Origin: a virus
Taxonomy: Duplodnaviria; Heunggongvirae; Uroviricota; Caudoviricetes
Virus record (IMG/VR): IMGVR_UViG_3300037264_002389
Coordinates: 10,545 to 74,544 of that record
Reading direction: 5' to 3' (one strand)
DNA: 64,000 nt
Numbering within the stretch: the stretch's first letter is position 1; each line of letters starts with the position of its first letter. The notes beneath the pieces are model-generated. The model was given only the letters and a program-made list of their open reading frames with translations. It was not told the origin of the DNA and searched no databases. The position numbers and the translations under genes are program-made. Of this stretch, positions 6,363-53,930 are shown piece by piece.

Positions 6363-6365
6363 TGG

Positions 6366-6393
6366 AAAGGGGAGGATGAAACCTCCCCTTTTC
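6366..6393 (+). terminator. rho-independent terminator after the sheath gene, possibly bidirectional
   Basis: Hairpin aaaggggagg / cctcccctttt with a T-run after it and an A-run before it, so it could also terminate the convergent minus-strand ORF. Confidence 0.7.
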
Positions 6394-6408
6394 ATTATAA
6401 ATTAATAA

Positions 6409-7866: not shown

Positions 7867-8439
7867 GTGTCGTAGAAGTTCACATAAAATTTTCGCATGT
7901 TGTGGAATAGTTCGATTGATGTAATGTGATATGTCTTTACCCATAATAAGACTAGTCTGTATGATTACGTCTTGTGTGCGTTGATAGCCGTCTTCTATGC
8001 CGATTATAATCATTGGCGGGCCTGCTTGTTTTGATTTAATTCTGACCAGATGCGCACCGAGTTCGTACAATACGATTGGATTTAATGTCTCCTTACTAAA
8101 CCAAAATGATATTATATCTGCTTGCCATAAATATTCATATTCCCATTTAATTTGTTCTTCGGCTGCTTTAGGATTATGCACTGAAAATTCTTTTCGTCTC
8201 GGATTGAAGATGGTTCCTTTATTTTGAATTAATAATTCTATCAGTTCTGATTGCCAATCTCTACAGTTTGTGATTCCACCTGCTAGAAATAACCAAGGAC
8301 GTTGGTCTAATTTATTTGGATGATTTGGAGCTTCACAGTAATTCACGTTTAATTTCCTAGCTGTGATTGAATATGAAATACTGCACTTGTGATTGTTTAT
8401 TGTTGAAGATATTTTAATGATGATTGAGTTGTTGCTCAT
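7855..8439 (-). CDS. nucleoside 2-deoxyribosyltransferase / Rcl-like (NDT superfamily) protein
   Basis: WLFLAGGITNCRDW resembles the YLAGP...W nucleotide-binding motif of the NDT/DNPH1 fold; 194 aa. Confidence 0.4.
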   Translation of the reverse strand: MSNNSIIIKISSTINNHKCSISYSITARKLNVNYCEAPNHPNKLDQRPWLFLAGGITNCRDWQSELIELLIQNKGTIFNPRRKEFSVHNPKAAEEQIKWEYEYLWQADIISFWFSKETLNPIVLYELGAHLVRIKSKQAGPPMIIIGIEDGYQRTQDVIIQTSLIMGKDISHYINRTIPQHAKILCELLRHSRV

Positions 8440-8810: not shown

Positions 8811-9584
8811 ATGAAATATATTGAAGGATTGGTTGGATTATGGAGAAGATTTAAGTTATTAGATAACAAATATCTAATGTACTTCTTAATAGCATTAATT
8901 GGCATAATGGCCGCTTATGCATTAAGCCTCAAAACCGATTATAAGATTAAGGTAAAGATGATAGTTCAACCACGTGTGATAGAGACTTTGCCCAGCCATG
9001 TTATCGACTCGACAATTACCATAAGAACACCATTCGGATTTGGATCAGGAGTAGTAGTATCGAAGCACTTTATATTGTCAGCGGCACACCTATTGGCGAC
9101 CCCGCCATGGGAAAATGATGAGGCTGTGGTAGAAGTAGAGATACGTCATCATGAGTTGCAGGTAAATGTATGGACGCGTGCGACGATTGCAAAAGTGGAT
9201 AAAGAATCTGACCTGTTATTGTTATTTGTTCCTATTGAACTACCACATGCTATTAGTACAATAGCTACCAATGATATGATGAATGCTGGCGATAAGTTAT
9301 ATGTGGTTGGTTATCCATATGGCGCATCGGCCCCTAATTGTAGTGATGGTAGATTAACGGCTAAATTTAATAATCATAATGAGGATGCTCCATTCTTATG
9401 GCACTGTAGTGCACCAGCTTTCCCCGGAAATTCTGGTGGCCCAGTGTTTTTAGCGAAAACAGGTGAATTAATTGGTATCTTAGTTCGCGTGCCAATTATA
9501 AGTGAAAATATCTTATCTAATAATGTCTCTTATTTTGTGCCATGGGATAGAATCGTGAACTTCGTTGGTCCACAAGGAAATTAG
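8811..9584 (+). CDS. trypsin-like (S1 family) serine protease with an N-terminal TM segment
   Basis: VSKHFILSAAHLL (His motif), a DLLLL-context Asp, and GNSGGPVF (Ser motif). Confidence 0.7.
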   Translation: MKYIEGLVGLWRRFKLLDNKYLMYFLIALIGIMAAYALSLKTDYKIKVKMIVQPRVIETLPSHVIDSTITIRTPFGFGSGVVVSKHFILSAAHLLATPPWENDEAVVEVEIRHHELQVNVWTRATIAKVDKESDLLLLFVPIELPHAISTIATNDMMNAGDKLYVVGYPYGASAPNCSDGRLTAKFNNHNEDAPFLWHCSAPAFPGNSGGPVFLAKTGELIGILVRVPIISENILSNNVSYFVPWDRIVNFVGPQGN

Positions 9585-9672
9585 TAATGAAAACATGGGT
9601 GCAGGAGAGTCTTAGGAGGCCATAAGTTATATTTAGATTCAAAGATAATTCGGATTAACAGGAGGTCTGATT

Positions 9673-10203
9673 ATGCCAGGCTTTATAATTGGTGGCGTTG
9701 GGGCAGGTCCAAACCATACCGTAGAGACTCGGCGTAAACACCGTTGGTTATTTCGTACTTTAGGTAAAGCCGCTGCTGGTGAATTTGCGGCAGAAGTGCT
9801 TGTTATTCTCAAAGAGGCCAGTAGGCCACATCCGACTTTCGAAGAGCCTGAAATGCACCACAACCAGGAAAAAAGTTACTTTGCTGGTAAGCATTCATGG
9901 GAACCAATTAAGTTGGTATGGTATGATGGTGAACAGGCTCCTGATGTTTCTAGGGAGATGTGGGATTGGTTGAATGGTGTACTTGGCGTTCACCGTGGTA
10001 ATATCCCAGTTAATAAACCAAATCAGTATAAGAAGAATGGCAGCCTAGAGATGCTCATGGGGGATGGTACGCCATCTGAGCGTTGGGAATTGTTTGGTTG
10101 TTGGCCACAGGATATTAACTGGAATACGTTAGATTACGCTGATACTGAGATTCAGACAATTGAAGTTAACATGCGGATTGATCGAGCCAATCGCGCTGCT
10201 TAA
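9673..10203 (+). CDS. tail tube protein paralog 1 (gp19-like)
   Basis: Begins MPGFIIGG; shares WEPIKLVWYD and a C-terminal EIQTIEV block with the next two ORFs and with T4 gp19 (NEIQTFEVTLALDY). Confidence 0.65.
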   Translation: MPGFIIGGVGAGPNHTVETRRKHRWLFRTLGKAAAGEFAAEVLVILKEASRPHPTFEEPEMHHNQEKSYFAGKHSWEPIKLVWYDGEQAPDVSREMWDWLNGVLGVHRGNIPVNKPNQYKKNGSLEMLMGDGTPSERWELFGCWPQDINWNTLDYADTEIQTIEVNMRIDRANRAA

Positions 10204-10229
10204 TTATAGATCTAGCATTAATCATTTCA

Positions 10230-10237
10230 TATAAATA
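10230..10237 (+). promoter_or_regulatory. TATAAATA box (T4-type late promoter consensus) upstream of tube paralog 2
   Basis: Exact TATAAATA 18 nt upstream of the ATG at 10255. Confidence 0.4.
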
Positions 10238-10254
10238 TAACTTGGAGGTTATAT

Positions 10255-10770
10255 ATGCCTGGTTTCATCATTGGTGGTATTGGACAAGGTCCAAATCATG
10301 CTATTGAGACACGGAGAAAGCATCGTTGGTTATTTGAGACTCTTGATGGCGTTGATGACAAAAAAATTTTAACCTATTTAAAAGAAGCAACTAGACCACA
10401 TTTAGTTATAGAACAGTCAGAGGTTTATCATAAACAAGAACGTATTTATTTAGCGGGTAGACATTCTTGGGAACCAATCAAGTTAGTATGGTATGACGTG
10501 GCTGATGAGGTTGATTCATCTGACGCTATTTGGCAATGGGTTAATAAAGTTATCGATTTCTTCAGGGATGTTGGTGTCCCACCACCAGGATCATATAAGA
10601 AAAATGGTCGTTTGATTATGCTGGATGGTGATGGGCGAACTAATGAAAATTGGGAGATATTTAACTGTTGGCCTGCAGAAGTGAACTGGAATGCTGTTGA
10701 TTACGCTGATTCAGAAATACAGACAATTGAAGTTACAATGCGGTACGATAGAGCAGCGAGATTTACCTAA
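10255..10770 (+). CDS. tail tube protein paralog 2 (gp19-like)
   Basis: About 55% identical by eye to paralog 1; a TATAAATA late-promoter-like box lies at 10230-10237. Confidence 0.65.
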   Translation: MPGFIIGGIGQGPNHAIETRRKHRWLFETLDGVDDKKILTYLKEATRPHLVIEQSEVYHKQERIYLAGRHSWEPIKLVWYDVADEVDSSDAIWQWVNKVIDFFRDVGVPPPGSYKKNGRLIMLDGDGRTNENWEIFNCWPAEVNWNAVDYADSEIQTIEVTMRYDRAARFT

Positions 10771-19992: not shown

Positions 19993-22914
19993 TTGGAGTC
20001 ACTAATGCCTCTTAAATGGCAATTATGGGATCGAGTCCGCGCTTTTATGCGGCAAGCTCAGATCTACAGAACCGATAATTTATATCAAGACCAAGAGACA
20101 ATCGACAAGATAGTATATGGAGGACAATTTCTTGACTTTAGTAAACAATCGGCTCTATTTGAACAGACCAGTCTACAGATAAATCGTCTGGAGCGCTATA
20201 AAGATTATGACATGATGGACGAAGTAGGTGAAGTCAGTCTAGCACTTGACATGTACGCGGACGAATCAACATTAATTGATCCAGAACGAAAGCACTCAAT
20301 AATAGTAAAAGCCAAGCGTAAGGGTCTCAAGAAAATTGTAGAAGATCTATTATATAACACATTAATGATTGACAGAGAAATTAGACCATTGGTACGTTAC
20401 CTATGCAAATATGGCGACTTTGTATCAGAAATTATACCAACTAAGAACCGCGATGGAGTTGCATCATTCAAATTCATGAACGTCTATAATTTCACACGAG
20501 TTCAAACCAAATATGGTGATCTAGTCGGTTTCTATTACCAAGACGCCGGTCTAGCAGAACCACAATTCTTACACCCATGGCAAGTAATGCACCTAAGACT
20601 TACAAGTTATGAAACTGTGTATCACCCTTACGGGCGATGTAGCGCACTGTGCAGCACAGTGTGCACACCAACTGGTTATAAATTATTGAAAGATATTCAG
20701 AAAGGTGATCAAGTATATTCGTTTGATCTTAAGACACAAAAACCAGTTATTACTACCGTTCTTGATAAGGTCTTAAATGGCAAGAAGAAGACGTTAATTA
20801 TTAAGACTAAACATCGTTCAATTCAAGTTACACCAGAACACCCAATGTTGGCTATTATTAAGAATAATTATATTTGTGAAGAACAATTATGTAGAGGTAC
20901 CGACCGCAATAAGCCACATATTCGTAGGCAACATAAGAGAGATATTAAAACTAAACAGTATGTTTTAGCACAAGATCTGGTCAGAAATGATAAACTTGTA
21001 CTTCCGAAGCTACACAATCCTGGGGTTGATATTCCAATTGAATCATACAAAATTGCACAACAATATGATGGTAAGAGAATGTGCTTCCCGCAATATGTTA
21101 CTGAAAATTTTGCTAGATTGATTGGTTTTTTGATTGGTGATGGTTGGGTCCCAAATGGAGGTAGGACATTATGTTTTGCAGAAGGTGAATATCAAGAATT
21201 AAATAATAAATATATTAGTATTATTAAATTATTTAATTATGAATCAGAACCATATCGGCATATTATCAAGGATAAAAATGGGCAAGAAAAGAAACATGGT
21301 TATTTCACATTTAACTCCATAGAATTAGCTCAGACAATAGTTAATATGGGTCTTGTTGGTCGCTGTTATGAGAAACGTATTCCTAAATGGGTGTTTGTTG
21401 CTAAGGAAGAAATTAAGAAGGCATTTATTGAAGGGTTGGTCGATGCAGATGGTTCAACAAATATTGATGAATGGGATTGTGAGCGATATCAAATTGAATT
21501 AACCTCAGAAGAGTTAGTGAAAGATCTGAAGGTCTTATTAGATCAAATGAATATTAAGTGTGGGAATATTAGCAAGCGTAATCGCTCTGATCCGATTGTT
21601 GTGTTTGATGGTGAAGAATATGAACGTCGTGATTCATGGATTGTGTATTGGTATGATGCTAAGATGCCATCAGGTGATTTAATGCATATGGGTAAGCGTA
21701 GGACGAAGTACGACAATTCATCTGATGACTATCTGGTTGAATCTATCCTATCGATAGAAGACGGTGGCGAGGTTGAAGTTGGTGATATCCAGGTTTCAGA
21801 GCATCACAACTTCGTGGCCGATGGTGTTGTTATCCACAATTCGATGTTAGATGGTGGTCGTAAGGATTTCAAACGTCTTAGACTGATGGAAGATGCCGCG
21901 CTTGTCTACAGGCTGACCCGCGCCCCCGAAAAGCGGATTTTTAGTATTCCAGTTGGTAATATTCCACCTAAGGAAGTGCCACAATATATTGAGTTGCTTG
22001 CTCGTCAGATGAAGAAGCATAAGTTCGTTGATCCTGCTACTGGTCAAGTTAATGAGCGTTATAGTCCACTAATTCAAGATGATGATTTCTGGTTGCCTAA
22101 GAGAGCTGATGGCACCGGCCCAACTATTGATACTTTACCGGGTGCTGAGAACCTTGATCAGATTGCTGATATTGAATATTTCAAGAAGAAGATGGTGGCT
22201 GGATTAAAGATTCCGTTTAATCGGGTTGGTATTGGTGAACCAGCTGAGGCCGATGGACGCTCATTGGCTTCTGTTTCACCTGAGTTTGCCAAGGCGATTC
22301 AATGGGTACAGCGTGAAGTGGTAATGGGTATTAAGAAGATTGTGCTTGTTCATTTGGCACTTCGTGGGCATTCTGTTGACGATCTTAGCAGTTTTGATTT
22401 GTCAATGACCGCCGCAAGTGCGATCGATGAGTTATATCGTATTGAAACATGGAATACTAGATCTGATATTATGAAGAACCTGAAGGAGCTTGGCTTCTTC
22501 CCTGATGAATGGATTGTTGAGCGCTTTACGGATATGTCGCCAGATGAAATTGCGCTTATGAAGAAGCAGAAGGGTGTTATTGCGCCGGATGAAATGAAGG
22601 CTGAAGATGTACAAGATGATGAAACTCGTGATCTAATTCTTGAGTATAATAACTTGCGGCCACACAGAGAATTACAGATTGATAATAGACATGATGTTAT
22701 AATATTTGCACCACAGTTCTATGTTAATGCTAAGGAACTTGATGGTTTGAAGAATAAGGATGGCAAGTATATTGTCGAAAGTAGTGTTGCAGAGGACGAT
22801 GCAACCGCAGTTAAAAAAGAGACGCGTAATTTATTGATGGAGGAAGCTGGTCACAAATCAGTTGAAGTTGATAGTGTTGTTAAGCAAATGGACGATGTTC
22901 CTACAAAAGAATAA
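19993..22914 (+). CDS. portal protein (gp20-like) interrupted by an intein
   Basis: 973 aa; about 580 aa remain without the intein, consistent with T4 gp20 size. Lies directly downstream of terL and upstream of the prohead protease. Confidence 0.8.
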   Translation: MESLMPLKWQLWDRVRAFMRQAQIYRTDNLYQDQETIDKIVYGGQFLDFSKQSALFEQTSLQINRLERYKDYDMMDEVGEVSLALDMYADESTLIDPERKHSIIVKAKRKGLKKIVEDLLYNTLMIDREIRPLVRYLCKYGDFVSEIIPTKNRDGVASFKFMNVYNFTRVQTKYGDLVGFYYQDAGLAEPQFLHPWQVMHLRLTSYETVYHPYGRCSALCSTVCTPTGYKLLKDIQKGDQVYSFDLKTQKPVITTVLDKVLNGKKKTLIIKTKHRSIQVTPEHPMLAIIKNNYICEEQLCRGTDRNKPHIRRQHKRDIKTKQYVLAQDLVRNDKLVLPKLHNPGVDIPIESYKIAQQYDGKRMCFPQYVTENFARLIGFLIGDGWVPNGGRTLCFAEGEYQELNNKYISIIKLFNYESEPYRHIIKDKNGQEKKHGYFTFNSIELAQTIVNMGLVGRCYEKRIPKWVFVAKEEIKKAFIEGLVDADGSTNIDEWDCERYQIELTSEELVKDLKVLLDQMNIKCGNISKRNRSDPIVVFDGEEYERRDSWIVYWYDAKMPSGDLMHMGKRRTKYDNSSDDYLVESILSIEDGGEVEVGDIQVSEHHNFVADGVVIHNSMLDGGRKDFKRLRLMEDAALVYRLTRAPEKRIFSIPVGNIPPKEVPQYIELLARQMKKHKFVDPATGQVNERYSPLIQDDDFWLPKRADGTGPTIDTLPGAENLDQIADIEYFKKKMVAGLKIPFNRVGIGEPAEADGRSLASVSPEFAKAIQWVQREVVMGIKKIVLVHLALRGHSVDDLSSFDLSMTAASAIDELYRIETWNTRSDIMKNLKELGFFPDEWIVERFTDMSPDEIALMKKQKGVIAPDEMKAEDVQDDETRDLILEYNNLRPHRELQIDNRHDVIIFAPQFYVNAKELDGLKNKDGKYIVESSVAEDDATAVKKETRNLLMEEAGHKSVEVDSVVKQMDDVPTKE
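20662..21840 (+). mobile_element. intein with two-motif LAGLIDADG homing endonuclease
   Basis: N-terminal Cys candidates at 20638, 20650 and 20662, so the start is uncertain. LAGLIDADG blocks LIGFLIGDGW and IEGLVDADGS. Ends VVIHN (HN at 21835-21840) followed by Ser at 21841 as the +1 residue. Confidence 0.8.
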
Positions 22915-27290: not shown

Positions 27291-28013
27291 ATGGACAAGA
27301 TCATCGGCCTTTTGAAGCAGCTGGGAGCTTCCGATCAGCTATCTAAGTCAGTTGTAAGCGAGCTGAATGCGTGGAGAGCTGCTGAAGAAAAAGCGCTCAA
27401 CGAGAATTATGAGCGCAAACTAGTCAAGGCTAAACAAGCTTGCCTAGAAGCAGTTGAGAGTTATAAGGCCGATATTGCTAAGCGAATTGAGATCTTCCTT
27501 GAAGCACGAGTAAACACGATCAATCGGGAAGCGCAGAAGCAAGCCGCTGTGGGTGAATCCGAGGCAGCCAGGACACTGAGAGGGGTAAAATCCCTCATTG
27601 AAGGTGTCAAAATTGACTTGCCAGAGGGGAACCAGGTTGCGGTGGAAGAAACCAAGAAGCTGCGCGTCATGGTTGGTCAGCTGCAAGAGAAGCTTGAAGC
27701 ATCCGAACAGTCCAAGCGACATGCTAACATCATCGCTCGCAAACTGCTCGAACGTAACAAGCTCCTCGAAGCCAAGGGTGGCGCAGTAACAGAAGATAAG
27801 ACTGTAACTGAGTCAACCGAAGCCAAAAAGACAGAGCGACTTGAGGATCTTCGTGCTAAGAGCGAAAATCCTAAAACCACTAGGCCAGCAGCGGTTGAAA
27901 CCATTGCTAAGCCGAGTGTCAAGTCAACTGTCTCTCAGCAAGCTGGCGACCAAGATGTAATGGCAATCGCCGAAGGACTTGATGGAAGTCCGGCGTTGGT
28001 AATCACCGAATAA
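27291..28013 (+). CDS. prohead scaffold protein (gp22-like)
   Basis: 240 aa; Ala/Glu/Lys-rich coiled-coil character; sits between protease and capsid genes; GC-rich like the capsid gene. Confidence 0.6.
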   Translation: MDKIIGLLKQLGASDQLSKSVVSELNAWRAAEEKALNENYERKLVKAKQACLEAVESYKADIAKRIEIFLEARVNTINREAQKQAAVGESEAARTLRGVKSLIEGVKIDLPEGNQVAVEETKKLRVMVGQLQEKLEASEQSKRHANIIARKLLERNKLLEAKGGAVTEDKTVTESTEAKKTERLEDLRAKSENPKTTRPAAVETIAKPSVKSTVSQQAGDQDVMAIAEGLDGSPALVITE

Positions 28014-28038: not shown

Positions 28039-29619
28039 ATGCGGAATGCAACCCGATCAGGCGTCCCGGCACACGCCAGTCACTACGCTGGTGCTCTGAC
28101 CGAAGAACGCCGAGTAGTTCGTGACCAGCGCCTCATGCTGGAAGGTAAGAAAAACAAGCTCGTGAATCGCTGGAACCCAGTCCTCCGCAAGTGCTTGGAG
28201 ATACCGGCTCAGAAGTTTGGCCTCATGGCTGCTATGCTGGAAAACCAGTACGCAGCTTGGGACCCAAAGAACCGCAGCGCCATCTTTGAGGAAGCAACCA
28301 CCACAGGCAACATCGCTGACTTCACCCGATTTGCGCTCCCACTCATCCGCAAGAGCTACCCACGGCTAATCGCTGACAACTTGGTCGGCGTGCAGCCAAT
28401 GAGCAGCCCAGCTAGCTTGATCTTCTACATCCGGTATCGCTACGCCATTAGCAAGGGCCAAACGATTGCCGGAACGCAGATCATGCGCCAGAACACGGCG
28501 CAGCAGTTCAGCCGTCAGAACGGTTGGGCACTTGATCCATACTACAGCAGCCAGACCGTCAAGGGTGAAGAACTCACCATTAGCGGCGGTGGTGCAGTAA
28601 TCAGCGGCACTCTGGCCCACAAGCCAGTCCTCGCCGGAACAGTTGTTGTCAACGTCTTCCTCGAAGACGACGACAACTGCGAAGATCCAACCCCATGTCT
28701 CCAAGTCACCTTCGATGCCAACGGGAATCCAGATCTAGTCCTGGTTGGTGAATCGACGGACTGCCCAGACGTGACGGTTGACACCAGCACGACCGGTGCC
28801 ACGGTCTTCGACCACACCACTGGTGAAGTAACCATCACGCTCTCGGCTGGTTCCTTCGCTGGAACAGCAATTGCTCGCGCTGATTACGAGTTCGATCTGG
28901 AAAATAATCCTTTTCAGCCAGAACTAACTCTGTCGATCGACAGTGATTCAGTCTCAGCCGTAACTCGTAAGCTCAAGACCACCTGGTCCCTCGAAGCGGC
29001 CCAGGACCTCAAGAGCGTTCACAACATCGATGCCGAAGGCACCCTCACCGACCTGATGGCCGATGAGATCGTAGCCGAAATCGACCGCGAAATCATCAAC
29101 GATCTAATCATCGCGGCCTCGATCCGAGCTACGCACAACTTCGGTACCGCTGCCGGTGCATCAGTGAACTTCACAGACCGCAACATCGCGCTCCTCTACA
29201 AGGTGCTCGAAGTCGCCAACGTGATTCACCGCACCACCCTCCGTGGACCAGCCAACTGGATGGTAACCAGTGCTGATATTGCCTCGAAGTTTGAGCAGCT
29301 GAATGACTTCCGAGGCTCTGATGCACTGGCTCAGGACGGAATCGATATCGGCATCATGAGCGCCGGTACGATTCAGGGCAAGATCAAGCTGTACAAGGAC
29401 CCGTTGTTCCCGAACTGCAAAATCCTCCTTGGCTTCAAGGGGAACTCGGTTCTGGATGCGGGTTACTTCTACGCACCGTACATCCCACTCCTGAGCACCC
29501 CAACGGTCCTCGATCCCAATAGCTTCACGCCAAGCAAGGGTGTAATGACCCGCTACGGCAAGAAGTTGATTGAGGATGGAGGTCTTTATTACGGGGTAAT
29601 CACGGTTTCGAATTTGTAA
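28039..29619 (+). CDS. major capsid protein (T4 gp23 family)
   Basis: LVGVQPMSSP vs gp23 CGVQPMNSP; SLEAAQDLKSVHNIDAEGTLTDLMADEIVAEIDREIIN vs SIELAQDLRAVHGMDADAELSGILATEIMLEINREVVD; AGYFYAPYIPL vs AGIYYAPYVAL. Confidence 0.92.
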   Translation: MRNATRSGVPAHASHYAGALTEERRVVRDQRLMLEGKKNKLVNRWNPVLRKCLEIPAQKFGLMAAMLENQYAAWDPKNRSAIFEEATTTGNIADFTRFALPLIRKSYPRLIADNLVGVQPMSSPASLIFYIRYRYAISKGQTIAGTQIMRQNTAQQFSRQNGWALDPYYSSQTVKGEELTISGGGAVISGTLAHKPVLAGTVVVNVFLEDDDNCEDPTPCLQVTFDANGNPDLVLVGESTDCPDVTVDTSTTGATVFDHTTGEVTITLSAGSFAGTAIARADYEFDLENNPFQPELTLSIDSDSVSAVTRKLKTTWSLEAAQDLKSVHNIDAEGTLTDLMADEIVAEIDREIINDLIIAASIRATHNFGTAAGASVNFTDRNIALLYKVLEVANVIHRTTLRGPANWMVTSADIASKFEQLNDFRGSDALAQDGIDIGIMSAGTIQGKIKLYKDPLFPNCKILLGFKGNSVLDAGYFYAPYIPLLSTPTVLDPNSFTPSKGVMTRYGKKLIEDGGLYYGVITVSNL

Positions 29620-29644: not shown

Positions 29645-29678
29645 AAACGGCCAGGCTAATCACCTGGCCGTTTTTGTA
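29645..29678 (+). terminator. rho-independent terminator after the capsid gene
   Basis: aaacggccagg-ctaatca-cctggccgttt hairpin followed by TTTTT. Confidence 0.8.
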
Positions 29679-29895
29679 TCTATACTTCTGTATTTAAAAA
29701 CTGCTATATGGCAAGGGTGGCCAACTTCGTGTTGGGAATGTTGCTTGGCGTAGGGTTGATGGCGAGGTTGAGTTGAGTTTGATTCCTGATTTTATTGATA
29801 AAGTTAAGGATAAGTGTGGGTCGCTTAGGGACGCTTTTGCTTAGATGGTGTATATCTTCTTGACTTTCTACCTTCTGATATAATGAGTAATAGAG

Positions 29896-29925
29896 AGGAG
29901 GTAATTAAATATGCCTGATGATATG
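29896..29925. repeat. 30-bp direct repeat, copy 1 (aggaggtaattaaatatgcctgatgatatg)
   Basis: Exact copy again at 30080-30109. Confidence 0.9.
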
Positions 29926-30081
29926 AACGAAAAACGTAAGCAGGAGAATAATAGTAAACTTCTTTCTATAATAGAAGATTCTGAATGTAAATTATCCTTA
30001 ATATATATATTTGTTTTTGGAATTCCATTTTTAATTTTATTGATTAAGATATTATTTGATATTTATACTTATAATAAATAG
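29911..30081 (+). CDS. 56-aa AT-rich small membrane peptide (MPDDMNEKRKQ...FGIPFLILLIKILF)
   Basis: Perfect RBS aggagg 8 nt upstream; hydrophobic C-terminal half; very AT-rich unlike its neighbours. Confidence 0.4.
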   Translation: MPDDMNEKRKQENNSKLLSIIEDSECKLSLIYIFVFGIPFLILLIKILFDIYTYNK

Positions 30082-30109
30082 GAGGTAATTAAATATGCCT
30101 GATGATATG
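30080..30109. repeat. 30-bp direct repeat, copy 2, recreating RBS plus ATG and then a stop after five codons (MPDDM*)
   Basis: Exact duplicate of 29896-29925. Confidence 0.9.
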
Positions 30110-32663: not shown

Positions 32664-33185
32664 ATGATCAATATTAAGGAATTGGCGATGTTGTTGTCTG
32701 AGGATATTAGGGATAATAATGGTTTTGTGTTGAATGAGGCAGGTATTCAACCTGGTCAACCTGGTCAGCCTGGTGGTAAGCCCCAGACAGGGTCTGGGGA
32801 TGAAATTACTCAAAATGATGATGTAGTTTTTCAAGCAATTGCAAGAAGTATCGCGATTGCTCTTGATGAGCAGGATTTGTATAGGATGTTGGATGGTGGC
32901 AAAGTAGTTACTCTACAACAGCTTGAAACTGATGATGTTGTTTTTGTGTTGAATAATGTGTCTGTGAAGCAGTTATCAGGTAATGAGGAAACTAGGGAAC
33001 TTCAGGTGTCTGGGGTTATGGATGAAGCAGTGATCGCTGCCAATACCGATCAAGAGCGAACTGTTCTTAATGTGCCTTTCAATGGTAAGTTATTGATTAC
33101 CCCAGGTGGAGTTGAGGGTGCTATTAAGATATATGGTTCACGTGGTAAGCCTGATAGTGGAAGTAATCTAATAGCATTAGGTTGA
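32664..33185 (+). CDS. hypothetical protein
   Basis: 173-aa ORF with RBS aaaggag. Confidence 0.45.
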   Translation: MINIKELAMLLSEDIRDNNGFVLNEAGIQPGQPGQPGGKPQTGSGDEITQNDDVVFQAIARSIAIALDEQDLYRMLDGGKVVTLQQLETDDVVFVLNNVSVKQLSGNEETRELQVSGVMDEAVIAANTDQERTVLNVPFNGKLLITPGGVEGAIKIYGSRGKPDSGSNLIALG

Positions 33186-33255
33186 ATATTGAATGACAGT
33201 ATGGGTGAACTACCATTAAAAGTGAATAGGGTTCTGAGTGAACCAGTATATTAAT

Positions 33256-33298
33256 ATATTGGGTTACTCCTCACTAATGACGAGGAGTAACCCAATAT
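33256..33298 (+). promoter_or_regulatory. 17-bp perfect stem hairpin abutting the start codon of the next gene
   Basis: atattgggttactcctc-actaatgac-gaggagtaacccaatat; the right arm contains gaggag (RBS-like); ATG at 33300. Confidence 0.5.
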
Positions 33299-33299
33299 T

Positions 33300-33650
33300 A
33301 TGTATCTGAATCATATGAGTATTATGAGGGAGATTACTGAAAAGGATTGGGCTAAGAAGGATGAGTTGCAGAGTAGGTTGGATAAGTTGTTGGTGGAGGC
33401 TACAGAGGCTAAGTTGGTGTTGTATTTCCATGTTGGTCTAAAGCGTTCGGCTTTTATGATGTCTTATTTGTCTGAGACGATGAAGAATAATACAGCTGGG
33501 GCTTCATTTGGTTTTAAGGGTATTTGTGATTTTACTCCTCTGCCGTTCAGATTTGATTTTGATAGTAGCGATGGTGCTTTGTCTTATGGGTCTTCACCGC
33601 GTCCTGCCGATGAGCTAGCTATTAAGAAGAGGATTTACGCGCAGGAGTAG
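33300..33650 (+). CDS. hypothetical protein
   Basis: 116-aa ORF. Confidence 0.45.
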   Translation: MYLNHMSIMREITEKDWAKKDELQSRLDKLLVEATEAKLVLYFHVGLKRSAFMMSYLSETMKNNTAGASFGFKGICDFTPLPFRFDFDSSDGALSYGSSPRPADELAIKKRIYAQE

Positions 33651-33654
33651 ATCA

Positions 33655-33927
33655 TTGAGTGATTTAGAGTCTGTTGGCCCATTGTTGGTCGAGATGATGA
33701 AGGCTGGTTATTTTTGTCGAGTATGGTGTCAATCTGAGGTTAGTGAGGAACGGCGTTGGCATGTGACTTTTGAAAAAGGCTGTCCACGTCCTAATCAGGA
33801 AGTGTGGCCGTGGGCGTGGGCTGAGGACACTGATTTGGTTGTTGCGGTTAAACGAGCATCGTCTGAGGCTAGGGAGCGCGAACGGGAGTTTTCTTACAAG
33901 GAGAATCGCCATGGAAGAACTGATTGA
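33655..33927 (+). CDS. hypothetical small protein carrying repeat B1
   Basis: 90 aa; contains the 33739-33888 sequence that is repeated at 35092-35199. Confidence 0.35.
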   Translation: MSDLESVGPLLVEMMKAGYFCRVWCQSEVSEERRWHVTFEKGCPRPNQEVWPWAWAEDTDLVVAVKRASSEAREREREFSYKENRHGRTD

Positions 33928-34204
33928 ACAAGTAGTCCGGGAGTTCGACTACGAAAAGTGTTTGTTATTGATGAGGGCTTCTGGGCATCAATGGGCTTGC
34001 GAAGGTATGCCCGGAAGTGAGTACCCCTCCGTCGAAAGAATGAAGGCATCGCTTGCCGACATACTTCGCGATCTTCTGATTAAGTTCGAAGGAAATGGGG
34101 AGTGTGGTGTCGGAGGGTTCAAGGTTTCTATTCGAGACGGGAAACTTCAAGTTTGGTTTGTTACGTCTTTTAAACAGGAGTTCGGGGTGGAGGTCTGCGC
34201 CTGA
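33911..34204 (+). CDS. hypothetical protein (internal ATG with RBS aaggagaa)
   Basis: 98 aa read from an ATG inside the 33770 ORF frame. Confidence 0.35.
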   Translation: MEELIEQVVREFDYEKCLLLMRASGHQWACEGMPGSEYPSVERMKASLADILRDLLIKFEGNGECGVGGFKVSIRDGKLQVWFVTSFKQEFGVEVCA

Positions 34205-34251
34205 AGTAGGTTGATACTTTACGCGAAGATCTTAAATGATACGACCCTCGT

Positions 34252-34885
34252 AGACAACTCGGTGTCTGGTCCACGCCGCCCACTCGTCAGAGGGGCGATA
34301 CCGAAAGGAGAGTAGCCGTGTACCATCGCGGAAAAGCCCTCAAACAGAGGGCAATCAGCCACATCGTCGCCACAATGCACAACATCCCCGAATGTGCGCC
34401 TACGGGGGTGGGTGCTGGTCCCAAGAAAATCGGCTATCTGGCCGGTTTCGACTTCCACAGCCCCCATAAGCGGCAGTTCGCCAGGGGTCTGCTCTTGGAA
34501 GCTCTTGACCTGGGCTTGGTCAAGCAAGTACCGATGGGTAGGAGCCGCCATCGGTATGTCCTCAGCGTCGAACAACAACAGCCGACGCATTCCCCGTACT
34601 ATGCTAACTGGCTCAAGCAAGAAGGCGCAACCATCATCGTAGCGTCCATGAATCTGTATCTGGATTATTTCATCCAGGTTGGTCCTCGTCTCAAGTCCCT
34701 TGAAGTTGAAGTTGGGACTGGGTTGTACGAGCCGAGTAACAGCCATACCCACCGTGGTTACTGGGCATGGCTGATCAGGGAAGAACTTGTTCATCGCGGA
34801 CAGCTCGTCAAGGTTGAGAACGAGCTGAGGATTGTTCTAGGTGATGCCCGTAGCATCATCTAGTTAATCAGACACCGAGTTGTCT
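34252..34885. mobile_element. GC-rich island bounded by perfect 17-bp inverted repeats (agacaactcggtgtctg / cagacaccgagttgtct)
   Basis: IRs at 34252-34268 and 34869-34885; the interior is about 58% GC against ~40% background; one ORF inside. Confidence 0.45.
34318..34863 (+). CDS. hypothetical protein encoded inside the IR-flanked island (GTG start, RBS gaaaggagag)
   Basis: 181 aa with high GC3 codon bias on the + strand. Confidence 0.4.
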   Translation: MYHRGKALKQRAISHIVATMHNIPECAPTGVGAGPKKIGYLAGFDFHSPHKRQFARGLLLEALDLGLVKQVPMGRSRHRYVLSVEQQQPTHSPYYANWLKQEGATIIVASMNLYLDYFIQVGPRLKSLEVEVGTGLYEPSNSHTHRGYWAWLIREELVHRGQLVKVENELRIVLGDARSII

Positions 34886-34948
34886 TATTTTGTTATTTTG
34901 TTGATTTTCCGGCTATATTAATATATCTCTCTATACAAATATATTAAT

Positions 34949-35119
34949 ATGGCTAATAGCATTGAGTTAGATGGTATTAAACGTTATGAAAAAGCAATTA
35001 AACAGATAATTAGTACCCTTACTGGTCCTATTGGCCCTACTGGGTTAACTGGTCCTATTGGCCCCACGGGTCCCACCGGTCCTGCCGAAGGGTTAGTGAG
35101 GAACGGCGTTGGCATGTGA
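34949..35119 (+). pseudogene. truncated duplicate of the tail-fibre 5' end fused to repeat B2 (56 aa, [24 protein letters not shown] plus GPxG repeats)
   Basis: Near-identical to 35962-36040 and then diverges into B-repeat sequence at 35092. Confidence 0.55.
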
Positions 35120-35264
35120 CTTTTGAAAAAGGCTGTCCACGTCCCAATCAGGAAGTGTGGCCGTGGGCGTGGGCTGAGGCTAAGGAGCGCGAACGGGAGA
35201 GTCTTTCCAGAAGTCGTTAAGAAGACGTGGTTCTGGTAAAAATAGAAATAGGTTGGGTTAAGAT

Positions 35265-35819
35265 ATGAGAATGTTCCATTTAACCCGCAAGAGCAATCTA
35301 GAATCAATCAAGCAATCTGGTCTACAAGTTAGAAATGCAGATCCAACTCATGGCAAAGGGATTTACGTATTCGACAATATTGATCGTGCGGACGTGATGA
35401 TGTACCATCTATATGGAGGCTATGGCGGCGAGCCATCTGATTTCGTCATTGTTGAAGTAGACATCGACCCGAAGGACCTCCTTATGGATGAGGACGCCCT
35501 AATAAATCTATTTAATGACCAAGACTTTGCCGCTTATGTATCGCCAGAAGCATTTAAGGTCTATCAGTTAGCGGTTGAGAAATGGGGCGATGATGTCAAT
35601 TCCATAGACGATCCGGAGGTTGCATTGTTTAAACAGTGGTTGATCGAGAAATACAACATCTTAGCAGATAAACGATTTACAATACCTACGAGAGATTTTA
35701 TTTTCACAGGCAAGGTGCTCTCACAGCCGCCGATTATTGCGTTTCATGCAATGCCAGTTGAGGATGAAGATGGATTTGATGAAAAACTTTCCGAGGCGCT
35801 AAGATACCACGCATTATGA
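35265..35819 (+). CDS. hypothetical protein
   Basis: 184-aa ORF. Confidence 0.45.
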   Translation: MRMFHLTRKSNLESIKQSGLQVRNADPTHGKGIYVFDNIDRADVMMYHLYGGYGGEPSDFVIVEVDIDPKDLLMDEDALINLFNDQDFAAYVSPEAFKVYQLAVEKWGDDVNSIDDPEVALFKQWLIEKYNILADKRFTIPTRDFIFTGKVLSQPPIIAFHAMPVEDEDGFDEKLSEALRYHAL

Positions 35820-35961
35820 GTTAGTAGTCGTTAGGATAGAACCAGTCATGGCTTGATATTCGATGAATTCTAGGAAGTTAGTGATGTCGTGTATTCCATA
35901 AGCCACCTATTTCCGGCGCTCTGTAAAAGCGTATAGCGCTATTCTATACAAATATATTAAT

Positions 35962-38319
35962 ATGGCTAATAGCATTGAATTAGATGGTATTAGACGTTAT
36001 GAAAAAGCAATTAAACAGATAATTAGTACCCTTCCACAAGGCCCTACCGGAGACACTGGCCCCATTGGTCCTACCGGATCAATTGGTCCCACTGGTCCCA
36101 TCGGTCCCACTGGGCCTACTGAGGGGTTTGTTAAGACTGCTGATAATGCTCCAAATATTTTGGTACTTTCTACGGATTTTCTTTATCAGATTCAGGTGTC
36201 TGGCGATACCGGTGATCGTTATAATATTGATGGCGCTGGGAAAATGTCGTGGGGAAATGGCGGTGGCGCTACTGATGTGTCTCTTGAGAGACTTGCCGCT
36301 AATATTCTTAAAATAGATGATACATTACAGGTAGATAATATTCTTCTTAATAGCCCATTTTCTTTTGCTGACGGTGTGCTTTCAAGTGATTCGACTTCTT
36401 TTTTACGCCTATTTACAGCAACTCCGAGCGCATATACAGCTGATCCTGATGTAGATGCGTTTGATATATTTTTCCGTGCTCAAGATGGTGGTGCACATAC
36501 TGTTAATAATCCTGTTGGCGGATCATTTGTTTATGTTCCTGGAGATCAAGGTGCTGGTGGGTCGGGTGCGCGAGGGAAGTTTATTGTCCGTGCTCCCGTG
36601 GCTGGGGAATATGCGACGTTCCAGGCGCAGGATAGTGGTAGCAATGCCAGATTTACTATTAATTCTGGTGGCGCGGTTAGTATGACGCCAGTTGCACAGT
36701 CAGGCACCGTTAATCCTGATTTTACTTTTACGGCTCCTGCACATGGGCCGCTTACGGCTGGTACTTCCCGTGCGGATGTAACGTTTGATCTGACGGCTAC
36801 TCATACTTGGGCAACTGGTGCTGGCCCAAACCCTCAGCGGTTCATCCGGTTTCTAGCTCCGACTCTGGACTATGTTGGGGCTTCGTCCTCGAATCTGATT
36901 CACTTCATCAACATCAGTGGTGGAGTGATTGCCGGACCTAACGCTACTATCGGGGTGAGCACGGCGCTCTACATCAGCAGCCACAACGTCGCCTCTGGTG
37001 GCGGCATCGTTTCTCAAGCGCGTGGCTTAAGCGTCGATCACCCCACAGGCGCGTCGTACAACATGGCGTTCCGGGTTCCTACTGCGCCTCAAGCAAGCAG
37101 CGGAAGCGCGTCACTGGCGATAGGCAGTGCTCGATTCGATGCCTCTGGTTTGACTCCCTTCTTCGGCAGCGTGAATGGCACGACCATTGGCGTGGCGGAA
37201 AACAGCTTTACCGGCTCGCTGATTGATTTACAGAACAATCAGAATCCTCATTTCCGTGTTTCTACTGGAGGTGTCGCTACTTCTGCTGTCGGACTTGAAG
37301 TTTTGTCTGCTGCTGCTGCCGGTGGTCTGAATCTTAATACATTGTCTACAGGAGCGAATGAATCATTAACGATTTCTTCAAAGGGCACTGGGACATTTAC
37401 TTTATCGTGCCCAGGGATCGGTAATGTTATTCTTCGCGCTAATGGTAACAATAGCATTACCGTCAGTCAGACAAGTTTTTCTTTTGTTCCAGTTGCTAGA
37501 TCTGGTGCTGACGGAAGCACTGCGACTTTTGTGATTACACTTCCAAGTGAATCTGCTGCTGCATTTACAGCGAGCACTGAGTCGCCAGATGTTAATCTTA
37601 ATATGACGCATACTAAGCAGCATGCCACTGGTGCTCTTACAACTAATCGTGAATTTATTGTTCAATCTGCTACACATAGTTTTGTGGGTGCGTCTACGTT
37701 GACGACTGCGGCTACTTTAGCAATTGATAATGCGCCTAGGGCTGGGTCAAATGCTACGATCACCAATAGTATTGCTTTTTTAATTCAATCGGTGAATTCT
37801 GTTGCTAATGGAGGAGCAGTTAATAATGCGTATGGTGCTTTAATTAATGCCCCAGTTGGGGCGACCAATAATATCGCTCTAGCATTGAAGGCAGCCGCTG
37901 GTCAGACTTCAAATATGTTCGAGATTCAGAATAGTTCTGGAACAGTTGAACTTTCTATTGATTCTGCTAATAATATTACATCTATTGGACGACTTACTCC
38001 GCGTGTTCAAACGGCAGCTGATGCTACTAGTATTACTCCAACTGGCAACACTGCGGATTTGGTCATTCAGACTAATACACAGGCTGCTGGTACACTTACC
38101 TTAAATGCACCTACAGGAACACCAGTCGATGGGCAGGTTCTTGTGGTAAGAGTTAAATGTACGAATAGTCAAACGTGGAGTTTTAATGCGATTTATAGAA
38201 GTGGAACTGATGTTTCCTTACCCACGACCACTACGGCTGGTATGGATGATTATCTTAGCTTCAAGTATAATGCTGCAGCCGCTGCATTTGATTGTGTTGG
38301 TCTTGCTAGAGGGTATTAG
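35962..38319 (+). CDS. tail fibre-like protein with N-terminal collagen-like GPxG repeats
   Basis: 785 aa; [27 protein letters not shown] at 36040-36120; Gly/Ala/Thr/Ser-rich repetitive beta-like body. Confidence 0.65.
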
Positions 38320-52049: not shown

Positions 52050-52958
52050 ATGGACAAACGACAGCAAAAACTAGAACGAAAACGCAAAAAACGCAACAAG
52101 CTTAGGCAAGAACACCTATGTAAGCGTGGTCTTGAACGGAAAAGCTTACTCCGCGATTACCTAATGCGCGGCCAATATGTCCTACCAAAGCACTGTCTCC
52201 CATCCAAAGACGACATGGACGGCTGGCACGACATTAATGCCATTCGAGACCGTGCCAAAATTATGACTAAAGCTATCGAATTATTCGATACAGACGTCAC
52301 TCTTAAAGAGTATTTGGACGGTCATCTAAACATCCACGACAACCAAAAACGAAAGAAATTAAACGAAATTTTTAGTATCGCTGCACAAGAATTATGTTGC
52401 AAACCACCTTACTTCATACCCCATATGACCATGATAGCTGATGGCAGATATTACGCACCAGCACTAAGCCTCTACCTACTCAAGAAAAAAGGCACAGGAC
52501 CAGGAACCCTCTGGTACGACCTCGAAAACATTCTAGAAATTGATTCCAAACACGTCCTATTCTCAACCCACGCCATAGAGCGCATCATAGCTAGACTGGA
52601 CCTCGTCAAAAACAAATACACGAAAAACACACTGTCTATACTCCTATTCTCGCGTATGAAATTAGGCCCAATGGCAGCAGCTAGAGGCGAACCACTACTA
52701 CAACTATATAATGAACCACTCTATGGCGATACAGAACCATTCGGATACTGCCCAATCTCATATAACAAAGACATCATAGTAGCCACCACCTACCTATTAC
52801 CAGGCATGTCTGGCACCCCAGAAGGAGTAGTCCTCAGAATGGCCGGAGAATATCCAGCAATCAACAACATTAATGATTTAGAGGAGAATAAGGAGAAATT
52901 TGAGAAGGCTGGACTACCGACATTCATTAGTGAGAAGGACGATTCACAAAAGACATGA
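52050..52958 (+). CDS. hypothetical protein
   Basis: 302 aa with a basic N-terminus. Confidence 0.45.
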   Translation: MDKRQQKLERKRKKRNKLRQEHLCKRGLERKSLLRDYLMRGQYVLPKHCLPSKDDMDGWHDINAIRDRAKIMTKAIELFDTDVTLKEYLDGHLNIHDNQKRKKLNEIFSIAAQELCCKPPYFIPHMTMIADGRYYAPALSLYLLKKKGTGPGTLWYDLENILEIDSKHVLFSTHAIERIIARLDLVKNKYTKNTLSILLFSRMKLGPMAAARGEPLLQLYNEPLYGDTEPFGYCPISYNKDIIVATTYLLPGMSGTPEGVVLRMAGEYPAINNINDLEENKEKFEKAGLPTFISEKDDSQKT

Positions 52959-53862
52959 CTCTTTGGGCTTTTCTATCGAGATATAATGTACAGTTTGTGT
53001 ATAATGCTCTTCCTATGAGTAAGGCGTCGTGACCGCACCACCAGGTATTGTAGATTAGTTGTTTTGATATTTTGTTTATTTTAATGGTTTCCTGATATTG
53101 TGTCAATACTAATTTAATGATTTGTGTTTGAACCCACTCTATTATCGGATAATGTCGGCTGCAGAATCCCAATCTTAGATAACGATTTTTATTGTGGGTA
53201 ACAGTTCCATCACCATCCCACAATCCGCGTAAGAAATGTTTCATGTTTAGATTAAGTTTTTCTAATTTGATAATGCCTTGCTTATATTCTGGCCAACCAG
53301 CTTGTTGATAGAATTCATATAATTCTTTATTATTAATAGAGATGTAGGCTCTGTCGAATGTTTTACCAGCGCATCTGACTTGACCTTTCTTTGGTTGGAT
53401 TGTGCTTTTTAATGATCTAGATAATTTATATAAGTGGCCAATATCTTTGTAAGCTAGATTTATTCTAATACGATGTGTAGTTTTTGGCATATACCCGTCA
53501 CTTAGGAAGAAACCAAACCAGTAACTGCCAGTCTCACTTGATAGATCCATAATGTCGGTTAGATCGAGATCATAATGGCGGGCAGCTGTACTTCGGTCTC
53601 GTAGTTCGACATTATGCTTCTTTAACTGCATCGCGACTACTATTGCACTACATCTGAATCTTTTTGCTATGTCATATGTGCTCATGCCTGAATTGTATAA
53701 GGAGGTAGCCAAAGTTGTATTGACCTTCATTGGCGTTGGTGGACGTGGTTTTATTTTGTTTTCTCTGAGTATTTTATATATGGTTTTATCGTTTACATGG
53801 TACTTTCGCGCTAGTTTTCTTATACCAGTCCCAGAAATGTATTCGGTGACGATGTTTATCAA
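52927..53862 (-). CDS. free-standing LAGLIDADG homing endonuclease with N-terminal HTH modules
   Basis: LRGLWDGDG and WFGFFLSDG motifs; two HTH-like segments (IRKLARKYHVNDKTIYKIL; TYDIAKRFRCSAIVVAMQL); minus strand among + genes. Confidence 0.6.
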   Translation of the reverse strand: MINIVTEYISGTGIRKLARKYHVNDKTIYKILRENKIKPRPPTPMKVNTTLATSLYNSGMSTYDIAKRFRCSAIVVAMQLKKHNVELRDRSTAARHYDLDLTDIMDLSSETGSYWFGFFLSDGYMPKTTHRIRINLAYKDIGHLYKLSRSLKSTIQPKKGQVRCAGKTFDRAYISINNKELYEFYQQAGWPEYKQGIIKLEKLNLNMKHFLRGLWDGDGTVTHNKNRYLRLGFCSRHYPIIEWVQTQIIKLVLTQYQETIKINKISKQLIYNTWWCGHDALLIGRALYTNCTLYLDRKAQRVMSFVNRPSH

Positions 53863-53930
53863 GTTTTTACCCTAATAATATTATATACTCGATGCAAATT
53901 TTCTATAAGTAATAGGAGGTAATTAATTTA

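Follow-up and report, generated by a model that had tools for sequence, protein, structure and literature searches.

Does a perfect inverted repeat around a single gene in a phage genome mark a transposable element, or can such a repeat have another origin and another use? The question is raised by a small G+C-rich island at positions 34252-34885 of a stretch of 64,000 nucleotides, referred to here as the window, from a viral contig. Within the island, two 17-nt arms enclose a leader and one gene for a protein of 181 aa (Table 1). The first-pass annotation, made from the letters of the sequence, had likened this architecture to a miniature transposable element bounded by terminal inverted repeats (TIRs) or to a homing cassette acquired from a high-GC donor. 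The reading that we prefer is a different one, namely, that the island is a self-contained accessory cassette whose arms act as a transcribed terminator or stabilizer stem in RNA and are not transposon ends. We give this reading about an even chance of being correct. Judged by its gene content, which includes a Gp23-type capsid, a T4-type portal, a sheath, a baseplate hub and a large terminase, the phage itself is a T4-like myovirus.

Table 1. Positions in the window of the features discussed in the text, followed by the settings of the homologous loci.
Feature	Position	Strand	Remarks
Gene-end hairpin	6360-6397		After the sheath gene
Gene-end hairpin	29645-29673		After the capsid gene
Gene-end hairpin	33256-33298		17/17 stem, ~1 kb upstream of the island
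89-nt direct repeat, copy 1	33738-33826	+	Inside ORF 33655-33927; copy 2 at 35091-35179, 99% identical
Sigma-70-like promoter candidate	34211-34240	+	TTGATA, 18 nt, AATGAT; consensus scan 9/12, weak
Left arm, AGACAACTCGGTGTCTG	34252-34268	+	From repeat and copy scans; just outside the sequence common to the homologous loci
Conserved leader, 49 nt	34269-34317	+	GTCCACGC, stem-loop at 34277-34297, then ACCGAAAGGAG with AAGGAG at 34305-34310
Gene for the 181-aa protein (tandem winged helix, from the model)	34318-34863	+	GTG start, TAG stop
Right arm, CAGACACCGAGTTGTCT	34869-34885	+	Begins 5 nt past the stop codon; pairs with the left arm as RNA
T-rich tract, TATTTTGTTATTTTGTTGATTTT	34886-34908	+	Directly after the right arm; arranged with the helix as in an intrinsic terminator
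Duplicated start of the collagen-like fiber gene	34930-35090	+	91 nt (34930-35020), 98% identical to 35943-36033
Homologous locus L002			Adjoins a metallophosphatase
Homologous locus L003			Follows an NAD-dependent DNA ligase
Homologous locus L004			1-kb fragment
Homologous loci L005-L010			11-kb phage-like contig family
Homologous locus L011			Among small unannotated genes

The inverted repeat was found to be exact, as had been described: its arms are complementary at 17 of 17 positions (100%) across a spacer of 600 nt. Each arm is also a small partial palindrome of 5+5 nt (AGACA-N6-TGTCT). With up to three mismatches allowed, the two arms were the only copies of this sequence in the 64-kb window, and two matches were obtained in none of 100 shuffles. 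When the window was shuffled 200 times with dinucleotides preserved, 1% of the shuffles contained a perfect 17-mer inverted repeat with a spacing of 30-3000 nt (mean, 0.015). As a positional control, the 110-120 nt upstream of every other gene were compared with the 70-80 nt downstream of it. For these control genes, roughly 170 from the window and the related loci, perfect complements between the two flanks reached at most 12 nt and were typically 6-7 nt long. The inverted repeat is real and non-random. The source contig is a metagenome assembly, and the junctions around the island are known from that assembly alone. A second gene-bracketing repeat in the window (9624/10221) was considered as kin and rejected, as it is an unrelated A+T-rich motif that resembles a promoter and precedes two tandem paralogues.

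The ORF within the arms is genuine, since five homologous clusters align to the 181-aa protein starting at residues 1-3, an AAGGAG ribosome-binding site lies 7 nt ahead of the GTG start, and the GC3 of the ORF is 0.63, compared with a window median of 0.34. The earlier description of a single 181-aa ORF with an excellent ribosome-binding site and high GC3 therefore stands. On the opposite strand, an ORF of 191 aa (34219-34794) was found to have neither homologues nor other support, and a long antisense frame is expected by chance in sequence of 55% G+C. Structured RNA within the coding sequence was also considered and set aside, the z-scores of -2.5 (sense) and -6.3 (antisense) overlapping those of controls (+1.7 to -4.8) and being uninformative.

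Searches of Pfam, PHROGs and NCBIfam with the 181-aa protein and its homologues returned no family at threshold, including, in Pfam and NCBIfam, any curated winged-helix family (MarR, PadR, ArsR or others) for the protein itself. Likewise, a profile search of PDB sequences with the protein yielded noise only (E > 1). HMMER over 1.84 billion representative proteins detected three relatives beside the protein itself, and a profile search of a 5.8-billion-cluster collection brought the family to a total of six clusters. These six, drawn from ~15 billion proteins, are all metagenomic and show 41-47% protein identity. By these searches, the protein family is new, very rare and uncharacterized.

An AlphaFold2 model built from a four-sequence alignment (pLDDT 84.6; pTM 0.82) contains two helix-turn-helix-plus-wing units, at residues of about 35-82 and 127-172, with a 29-residue helix between them. 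On the basis of this model, the protein can confidently be assigned to a two-domain winged-helix nucleic-acid-binding class and is predicted not to be a transposition enzyme. The best whole-chain match in Foldseek was the tandem winged-helix SECIS-binding fragment of SelB, which was not significant (E = 8e-3; TM about 0.3), and a search of a viral structure library with the model gave no named match. The first-pass annotation had recognized no catalytic motif, and neither the family searches nor the model show a transposase, recombinase or nuclease fold or motif.

The high-GC donor proposed in the first-pass annotation is uncertain. The island was described as a segment of about 58% G+C, whereas positions 34252-34885 measure 54.9%, and 57.7% is reached only in the highest 300-nt window. 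The ~40% G+C neighborhood was confirmed on the right side, where the edge is sharp, but not on the left, where positions 33600-34250 have 49-51%. High GC3 was confirmed as well, but it is no proof of foreign origin, since the vertically inherited core capsid gene has it too: with a GC3 of 0.66, the major capsid gene is the only ORF above that of the island. High GC3 is thus an unreliable mark of foreign origin in the present genome. The codon usage of the island ORF correlates best with that of the capsid gene (r = +0.45), both favoring C-ending codons, and its correlation with pooled genes (r = -0.26) is the lowest among the genes compared. The strong ribosome-binding site and the capsid-like codon usage, as far as sequence can indicate, are signs of high expression. 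Selection for codons that the host prefers, in favor of high expression, may explain the high GC3 as well as recent import would. Relative to their own contigs, the homologues in L011 and L002 are richer in G+C, those in L003 and L005 are slightly richer, and that in L004 is not.

In a miniature TIR element, the arms would be ends at which the island is moved by its own unrecognized protein or by an enzyme acting in trans. The size would be like that of MPME1 and MPME2, ultra-small mycobacteriophage mobile elements of roughly 440 bp with short inverted repeats, which show that phage elements of this kind exist (PMC3029335). The module has a single gene and recurs in unrelated contexts, and the perfect 17-bp repeat coincides exactly with its limits; the codon usage of the island is atypical of the genome. 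Furthermore, a second member of the family (L002) is also bracketed, by arms that are indels relative to a close relative. However, the tandem winged-helix fold lacks the catalytic domains of all known transposase, recombinase and nuclease classes, and the scan of ORFs around the island revealed neither a transposase nor an invertase. Some transposon families generate no target-site duplication, and none was detected here just outside the arms, where the flanks (...CCCTCGT on the left and TATTTTG... on the right) have no direct repeat of 2-10 nt. The search for extra copies of the arms found no further pair: in IMG/VR, the arm 17-mer had one match, in a coding region of an unrelated high-GC contig and with no paired copy, and in 185,579 GTDB species genomes it had 12 single matches, scattered over unrelated taxa and never paired. 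Being single, unpaired and from unrelated taxa, these 12 look incidental. The homologues that share the leader do not have the arms, whereas for ends recognized by a protein one would expect conservation no weaker than that of the leader, which argues that the arms are not such ends.

With no transposase fold, no target-site duplication and no second paired arm copy, we consider a TIR element distinctly unlikely. A homing cassette fares no better, as no LAGLIDADG, GIY-YIG, HNH or related endonuclease domain or fold was found in the island protein by searches that did detect LAGLIDADG domains elsewhere in the window. Two further arrangements were considered and rejected: a REP/RAYT-like one (no conserved HUH motif in the alignment, no Y1-transposase Pfam match and the wrong fold) and an integron attC site, to which the position, size and context do not correspond.

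The extent of the module itself can be read from the homologous loci, which represent six different neighborhoods, the window included. The leaders in the window, L011 and L003 are 80-86% identical at the nucleotide level, compared with 53-61% for the coding sequences, while the 60 nt beyond the module on either side are 42-52% identical, which is essentially random. Similarity among the loci begins no more than ~3 nt from where the left arm ends on its inner side and runs to ~5 nt past the stop codon, so the arms stand just outside the conserved module. In the window, the island is located in a variable region after the capsid gene and ahead of a collagen-like fiber gene. Two relatives with 85-86% identical capsid proteins (L012 and L014) are collinear with the window up to the capsid gene and, over the 10 kb past it, share none of the window's genes at 30.4-41.7 kb. 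As these relatives have nothing in common with the window downstream of the capsid gene, the island belongs to a variable block of the T4-like type. The six unrelated neighborhoods, the end of similarity at the arms and the absence of the region from the relatives with 85% capsid identity together suggest that the island is a discrete single-gene module that has moved, in a loose sense of the word, between phage genomes over evolutionary time.

The leader stem-loop consists of 5 bp, a bulged A, a CTC/GAG helix and a 4-nt loop, and it ends 7 nt before the ribosome-binding site. It is present in the minimum-energy folds and is unique within the window. L002 and L005 have two tandem copies of the same hairpin design, with a lower stem of GGACG/CGTCC instead of CGCCC/GGGCG, and their hairpin is found at the start predicted from a near-consensus promoter (TTGACA-N17-TATACT). 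Among the five distinct leader hairpins, all pairs are kept (100%), three of eight pairs have changed on both sides, and the bulged A is invariant. From the sequences compared, this covariation is a single lineage split, representing one or a few events rather than many. Rfam had no match at a permissive threshold in positions 33000-36500, so the region is no known intron, riboswitch or leader, and the leader motif had no match in metagenome, viral and genome collections.

These observations suggest that the leader may have a role in control of the gene. In the mechanism that we propose, the winged-helix protein would bind its own leader stem-loop and thereby exert autogenous control. By analogy with known systems, the protein probably regulates its own expression in this way. 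It may instead bind duplex DNA, or the hairpin may be purely a 5' stabilizer. Regulation through the leader would make the protein a candidate self-regulating nucleic-acid-binding protein of T4-like phages that is small and testable and comes with a covarying leader stem-loop.

It is also conceivable that recognition involves the arms and not the leader. As duplex-DNA operators, both arms would be bound by the winged-helix protein, which would loop the intervening 617 bp and repress its own promoter. The left arm indeed lies at the predicted transcription start, and the internal two-fold symmetry of each arm is of the kind bound by dimeric winged-helix repressors. However, no equivalent palindromes flank L011, L003 or L005, no further copies of the arm motif occur in the window, and it is the leader hairpin, not the arms, that is conserved with the protein. 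Operators are therefore very improbable in our judgment.

The arms take on a different appearance when considered as RNA. When 34245-34900 is folded as RNA, both the minimum-energy and the centroid structures close with a 19-bp helix, which adds a G-U and a U-A pair, available on the + strand only, to the 17 Watson-Crick pairs and has a duplex energy of -33.7 kcal/mol. Immediately past the right arm comes TATTTTGTTATTTT, and the tail UAUUUUGUUAUUUU has U in six of its first eight bases; the T-rich tract is the most U-rich among the compared tails of the window's gene-end hairpins. The promoter candidate upstream would start transcription at about 34247, ~5 nt ahead of the left arm, and promoter scan matches in the island region are not enriched over shuffles. 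The gene-end hairpins of this phage have perfect stems of 11-17 bp, energies of -18 to -28 kcal/mol and loops of 5-9 nt. The arms of the island equal the largest of these native hairpins in length and exceed them in stability, with 600 nt in the place of the loop. A terminator scan in which loops were limited to 3-8 nt reported none at the island arms.

The 19-bp fold, the U-rich tract, the upstream promoter-like site and the match with the native hairpins are the reasons for reading the repeat as a terminator or stabilizer stem. Under this model, transcription would run through both arms, and the 5' arm of the message would pair with the arm just past the stop codon. The resulting 19-bp helix would enclose the message and be followed by the U-tract. 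This long-range helix would then terminate the transcript or protect its end, much as the native gene-end hairpins would, but with a 600-nt "loop." With respect to origin, the most economical explanation is a single event: a perfect gene-end hairpin was already in place, and the cassette was inserted into its loop or took the place of that loop. It is also conceivable that a clamp evolved gradually at the first free nucleotides on either side of a constrained module. If the arms do act as proposed, the phage keeps a working terminator or stabilizer stem while a whole gene occupies its loop, and a perfect inverted repeat around a gene is not automatically a transposon.

The surroundings of the other family members were compared with this arrangement. 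The two leader-sharing homologues, L011 and L003, share nothing with the arms. At equivalent positions, L011 has an unrelated complementary pair (11/12), one half of it immediately 5' of the hairpin and the other 9 nt past the stop codon, and the fold of its full transcript closes with this pair; about 7% of the control genes reach the same 11/12 level. A closing helix is absent from the L003 and L005-L010 loci. The bracket of L002 is 35 nt long and 91% complementary, with 26 nt of it perfect. Its arms are two extra copies of a lineage-specific small hairpin-plus-ATTTAAT motif, are absent from the collinear L005 and have been inserted on either side of the promoter and gene, the left arm being upstream of the predicted promoter. 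From its sequence, this bracket looks like a terminator-type motif reused as an insulator, unlike the arrangement in the window, and it may be a different phenomenon from the window repeat.

Long brackets are thus found in two of the six family members, compared with none of the ~170 control genes at ≥17 nt. This is more than chance would produce and favors some link between the family and inverted repeats; we do not claim a single mechanism for both. One conceivable explanation is that large phages harbor a new kind of very small mobile cassette, with the gene and its bulged-A leader hairpin as its core, which we regard as a long shot. Such a cassette would insert into, or become enclosed by, hairpin loops such as those of terminators, with no classical transposase, a proposal to which we attach equally little probability. 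It would explain why two of the six members have long inverted-repeat brackets that are unrelated to each other.

The sequence on both sides of the island bears traces of rearrangement. The pair of 89-nt direct repeats, judged from its sequence, is the mark of a recent rearrangement around the island. The duplicated start of the fiber gene forms a stub ORF of 56 aa that is fused, out of frame, to copy 2 of the 89-nt repeat, and the junction of the two duplicated pieces has an 8-nt microhomology, GA(G/A)GGGTT. The resulting order is A - [ORF98 + island] - B, followed by A' - [ORF184] - B', and it has the appearance of two cargoes, each an alternative occupant of the same slot, that became joined in tandem. 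Relatives sharing the flanks, in which an empty site could be seen, were found neither by megablast and tblastn against isolated phages nor by comparison of the flanking proteins with IMG/VR and JGI metagenomes and by exact-protein look-ups.

These scars bear on the proposal that the repeat is an inert by-product of an illegitimate insertion, either a split hairpin stem or an inverted micro-duplication, that has no present function. Recent illegitimate recombination did take place in the surrounding 2.5 kb, as indicated by the two repeat pairs of 98-99% identity and the out-of-frame junction with its microhomology. Perfect 17-bp hairpins are native 1 kb away, and most family members have no bracket, both of which agree with an inert origin. 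In contrast, the 17/17 match with its G-U/U-A extension beside a U-rich tract has the look of a working terminator-type helix. An unselected repeat, if old enough, would also be expected to gather mismatches. Overall, we consider an inert repeat unlikely.

The position immediately upstream of the fiber gene suggests yet another use of the inverted repeat, as the ends of an invertible 600-bp segment flipped by a site-specific recombinase, as by Gin, Cin and Hin beside tail-fiber genes. A long ORF is open on the opposite strand too. However, the antisense ORF is the one without homologues and expected by chance, no invertase was found among the ORFs scanned, and the fiber gene is neither interrupted by the segment nor fused to it. 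Moreover, the arms are unlike their counterparts in the homologous loci. An invertible segment is scarcely credible here.

Several known systems resemble the island in part. Like intrinsic terminators and stabilizing stems, it combines a perfect helix of 17-19 bp, with G+C in it, and a U-rich tract immediately downstream. The short loop of intrinsic terminators, 3-10 nt, lets the hairpin form in the RNA exit channel. In contrast, the island has a loop of 600 nt in which an entire translated gene is enclosed, and the function of its helix is a predicted one. We know of no documented case in which a helix with 600 nt between its arms terminates transcription.

The protein and its leader have their own counterparts. 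The leaders of T4 genes 43 and 32 are autogenous translational operators, and SelB is a case of winged-helix recognition of an RNA hairpin. The island likewise has a small conserved stem-loop upstream of the ribosome-binding site and a nucleic-acid-binding product, the binding being predicted, but it has no sequence relationship to these systems, and the SelB fold match is not significant. MarR-type and other winged-helix proteins differ from the 181-aa protein, which has two wings per chain and a 29-residue helix instead of a MarR dimer and matches no Pfam MarR or other helix-turn-helix family.

As a sub-kilobase unit with short terminal inverted repeats within a phage genome, the island is similar to MPME1 and MPME2. 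The MPMEs carry one small ORF of unknown function with no recognizable catalytic motif. However, identical copies of them are known from several sites, and sister phages have empty sites, whereas the island was found in one copy and with no empty site. Its homologues have 41-47% identical proteins, unrelated flanks and no shared arms, and its product models as a pure winged-helix binder.

In the hyperplastic regions of T4-like phages, accessory cassettes are shuffled via composite promoter/stem-loop motifs, or PeSLs (Arbiol et al. 2010, PMC2839356; Comeau et al. 2014, PMC4122927). A PeSL belongs to a conserved family of motifs that recurs through the genome, whereas the arms of the island are inverted and unique in the window, its stem spans a whole gene, and no PeSL-like recurring repeat family was found around it. 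In other respects, the island resembles a PeSL cassette: its small, uncharacterized gene occupies a variable block flanked by core genes in a T4-like genome. The resemblance extends to a candidate sigma-70-like promoter, a stem of its own, a U-rich end and adjacent recombination scars.

Two pairs of nearly identical direct repeats around the island, a single winged-helix gene between perfect 17-nt inverted-repeat arms, give window positions 33738-36033 the order A-X-B|A'-Y-B'. Within this region, a 56-aa stub (34949-35119) repeats the beginning of the collagen-like fibre gene (35962-38319) and is fused, not in frame, to part of ORF 33655-33927; the junction carries the microhomology GA(G/A)GGGTT. 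Such an arrangement suggests that two alternative versions of the cargo of a single slot were recently joined in tandem. Judged from its sequence, the product of the ORF in the second slot is a possible, unconfirmed ADP-ribosyltransferase-like protein.

Coordinates of features in the window
Feature	Position	Strand	Details
Nucleoside 2-deoxyribosyltransferase-like ORF	7855-8439	- (minority)	Pfam PF15891, 60.6 bits
Inverted repeat, 23 nt	9624-9646 / 10221-10243		83% complementary; flanks ORF 9673-10203
Portal gene	19993-22914	+	973 aa; 591-594 aa in relatives
Major capsid gene	28039-29619	+	GC3 0.66
Repeated sequence TATAAnnAATAGGAGGTAATTAAATATG	29886-29925, 30070-30109, 53904-53926		
Hairpin	33256-33298		Perfect 17 bp, 9-nt loop; between ORFs 32664-33185 and 33300-33650
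Direct-repeat pair 1	33738-33826 = 35091-35179		98-99% identical
Direct-repeat pair 2	34930-35020 = 35943-36033		98-99% identical
Second cargo-slot ORF	35265-35819	+	184 aa; faint N-terminal matches only: PARP, DarT, DUF7002 (E about 0.2)
Free-standing ORF	52927-53862	- (minority)	N-terminal HTH and LAGLIDADG domain (33 bits)

Four exact copies of the palindromic motif TATATTAATAT lie in a 2.7-kb stretch (33247, 34914, 34940 and 35953), and each closely precedes the start of a gene or a module boundary. When up to one mismatch was allowed, 13 matches were detected versus 3.8 expected. The motif could serve locally as a promoter or operator, or in recombination. One exact copy is directly followed by the perfect hairpin, which ends 1 nt before an ATG. 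This hairpin lacks a U-tail, so instead of a terminator it may represent a site of processing or regulation.

The lineage that carries P0002 and P0005, homologues of the island protein, has a different recurrent small hairpin motif, GCCG-N3-4-GGCGG with ATTTAAT after it; its positions are 124-158, 194-206 and 919-953 in locus L002 and 8890-8960 in locus L005. In this lineage it lies upstream of a near-consensus TTGACA-N17-TATACT promoter, and two extra inverted copies bracket the promoter and gene in L002. The upstream 1.1 kb of L005 (7964-9079) carries no called genes.

Elsewhere in the window, the portal gene contains an intein that includes a LAGLIDADG endonuclease, and parts of the T4 portal domain lie on either side of this intein; the Pfam matches are Intein_splicing at 44 bits and LAGLIDADG_3 at 32 bits, both above threshold. 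The free-standing LAGLIDADG ORF is probably a homing endonuclease gene. Codon usage of the major capsid gene correlates negatively with that of the rest of the genome, with third-position C at 43% compared with 14% in the pooled genes. A similar codon lean was observed in the scaffold gene (27291-28013) and ORF 52050-52958.

The second arm of the 23-nt inverted repeat is located upstream of ORF 10255-10770, a tandem paralogue of the ORF that the repeat flanks, and both paralogue proteins start with MPGFIIGG. The repeat looks like an A+T-rich promoter-type motif present in opposite orientations. Two copies of TATAAnnAATAGGAGGTAATTAAATATG, 184 nt apart, each precede a small ORF beginning with MPDDM; by its sequence, the repeat resembles a T4 late promoter together with a ribosome-binding site.
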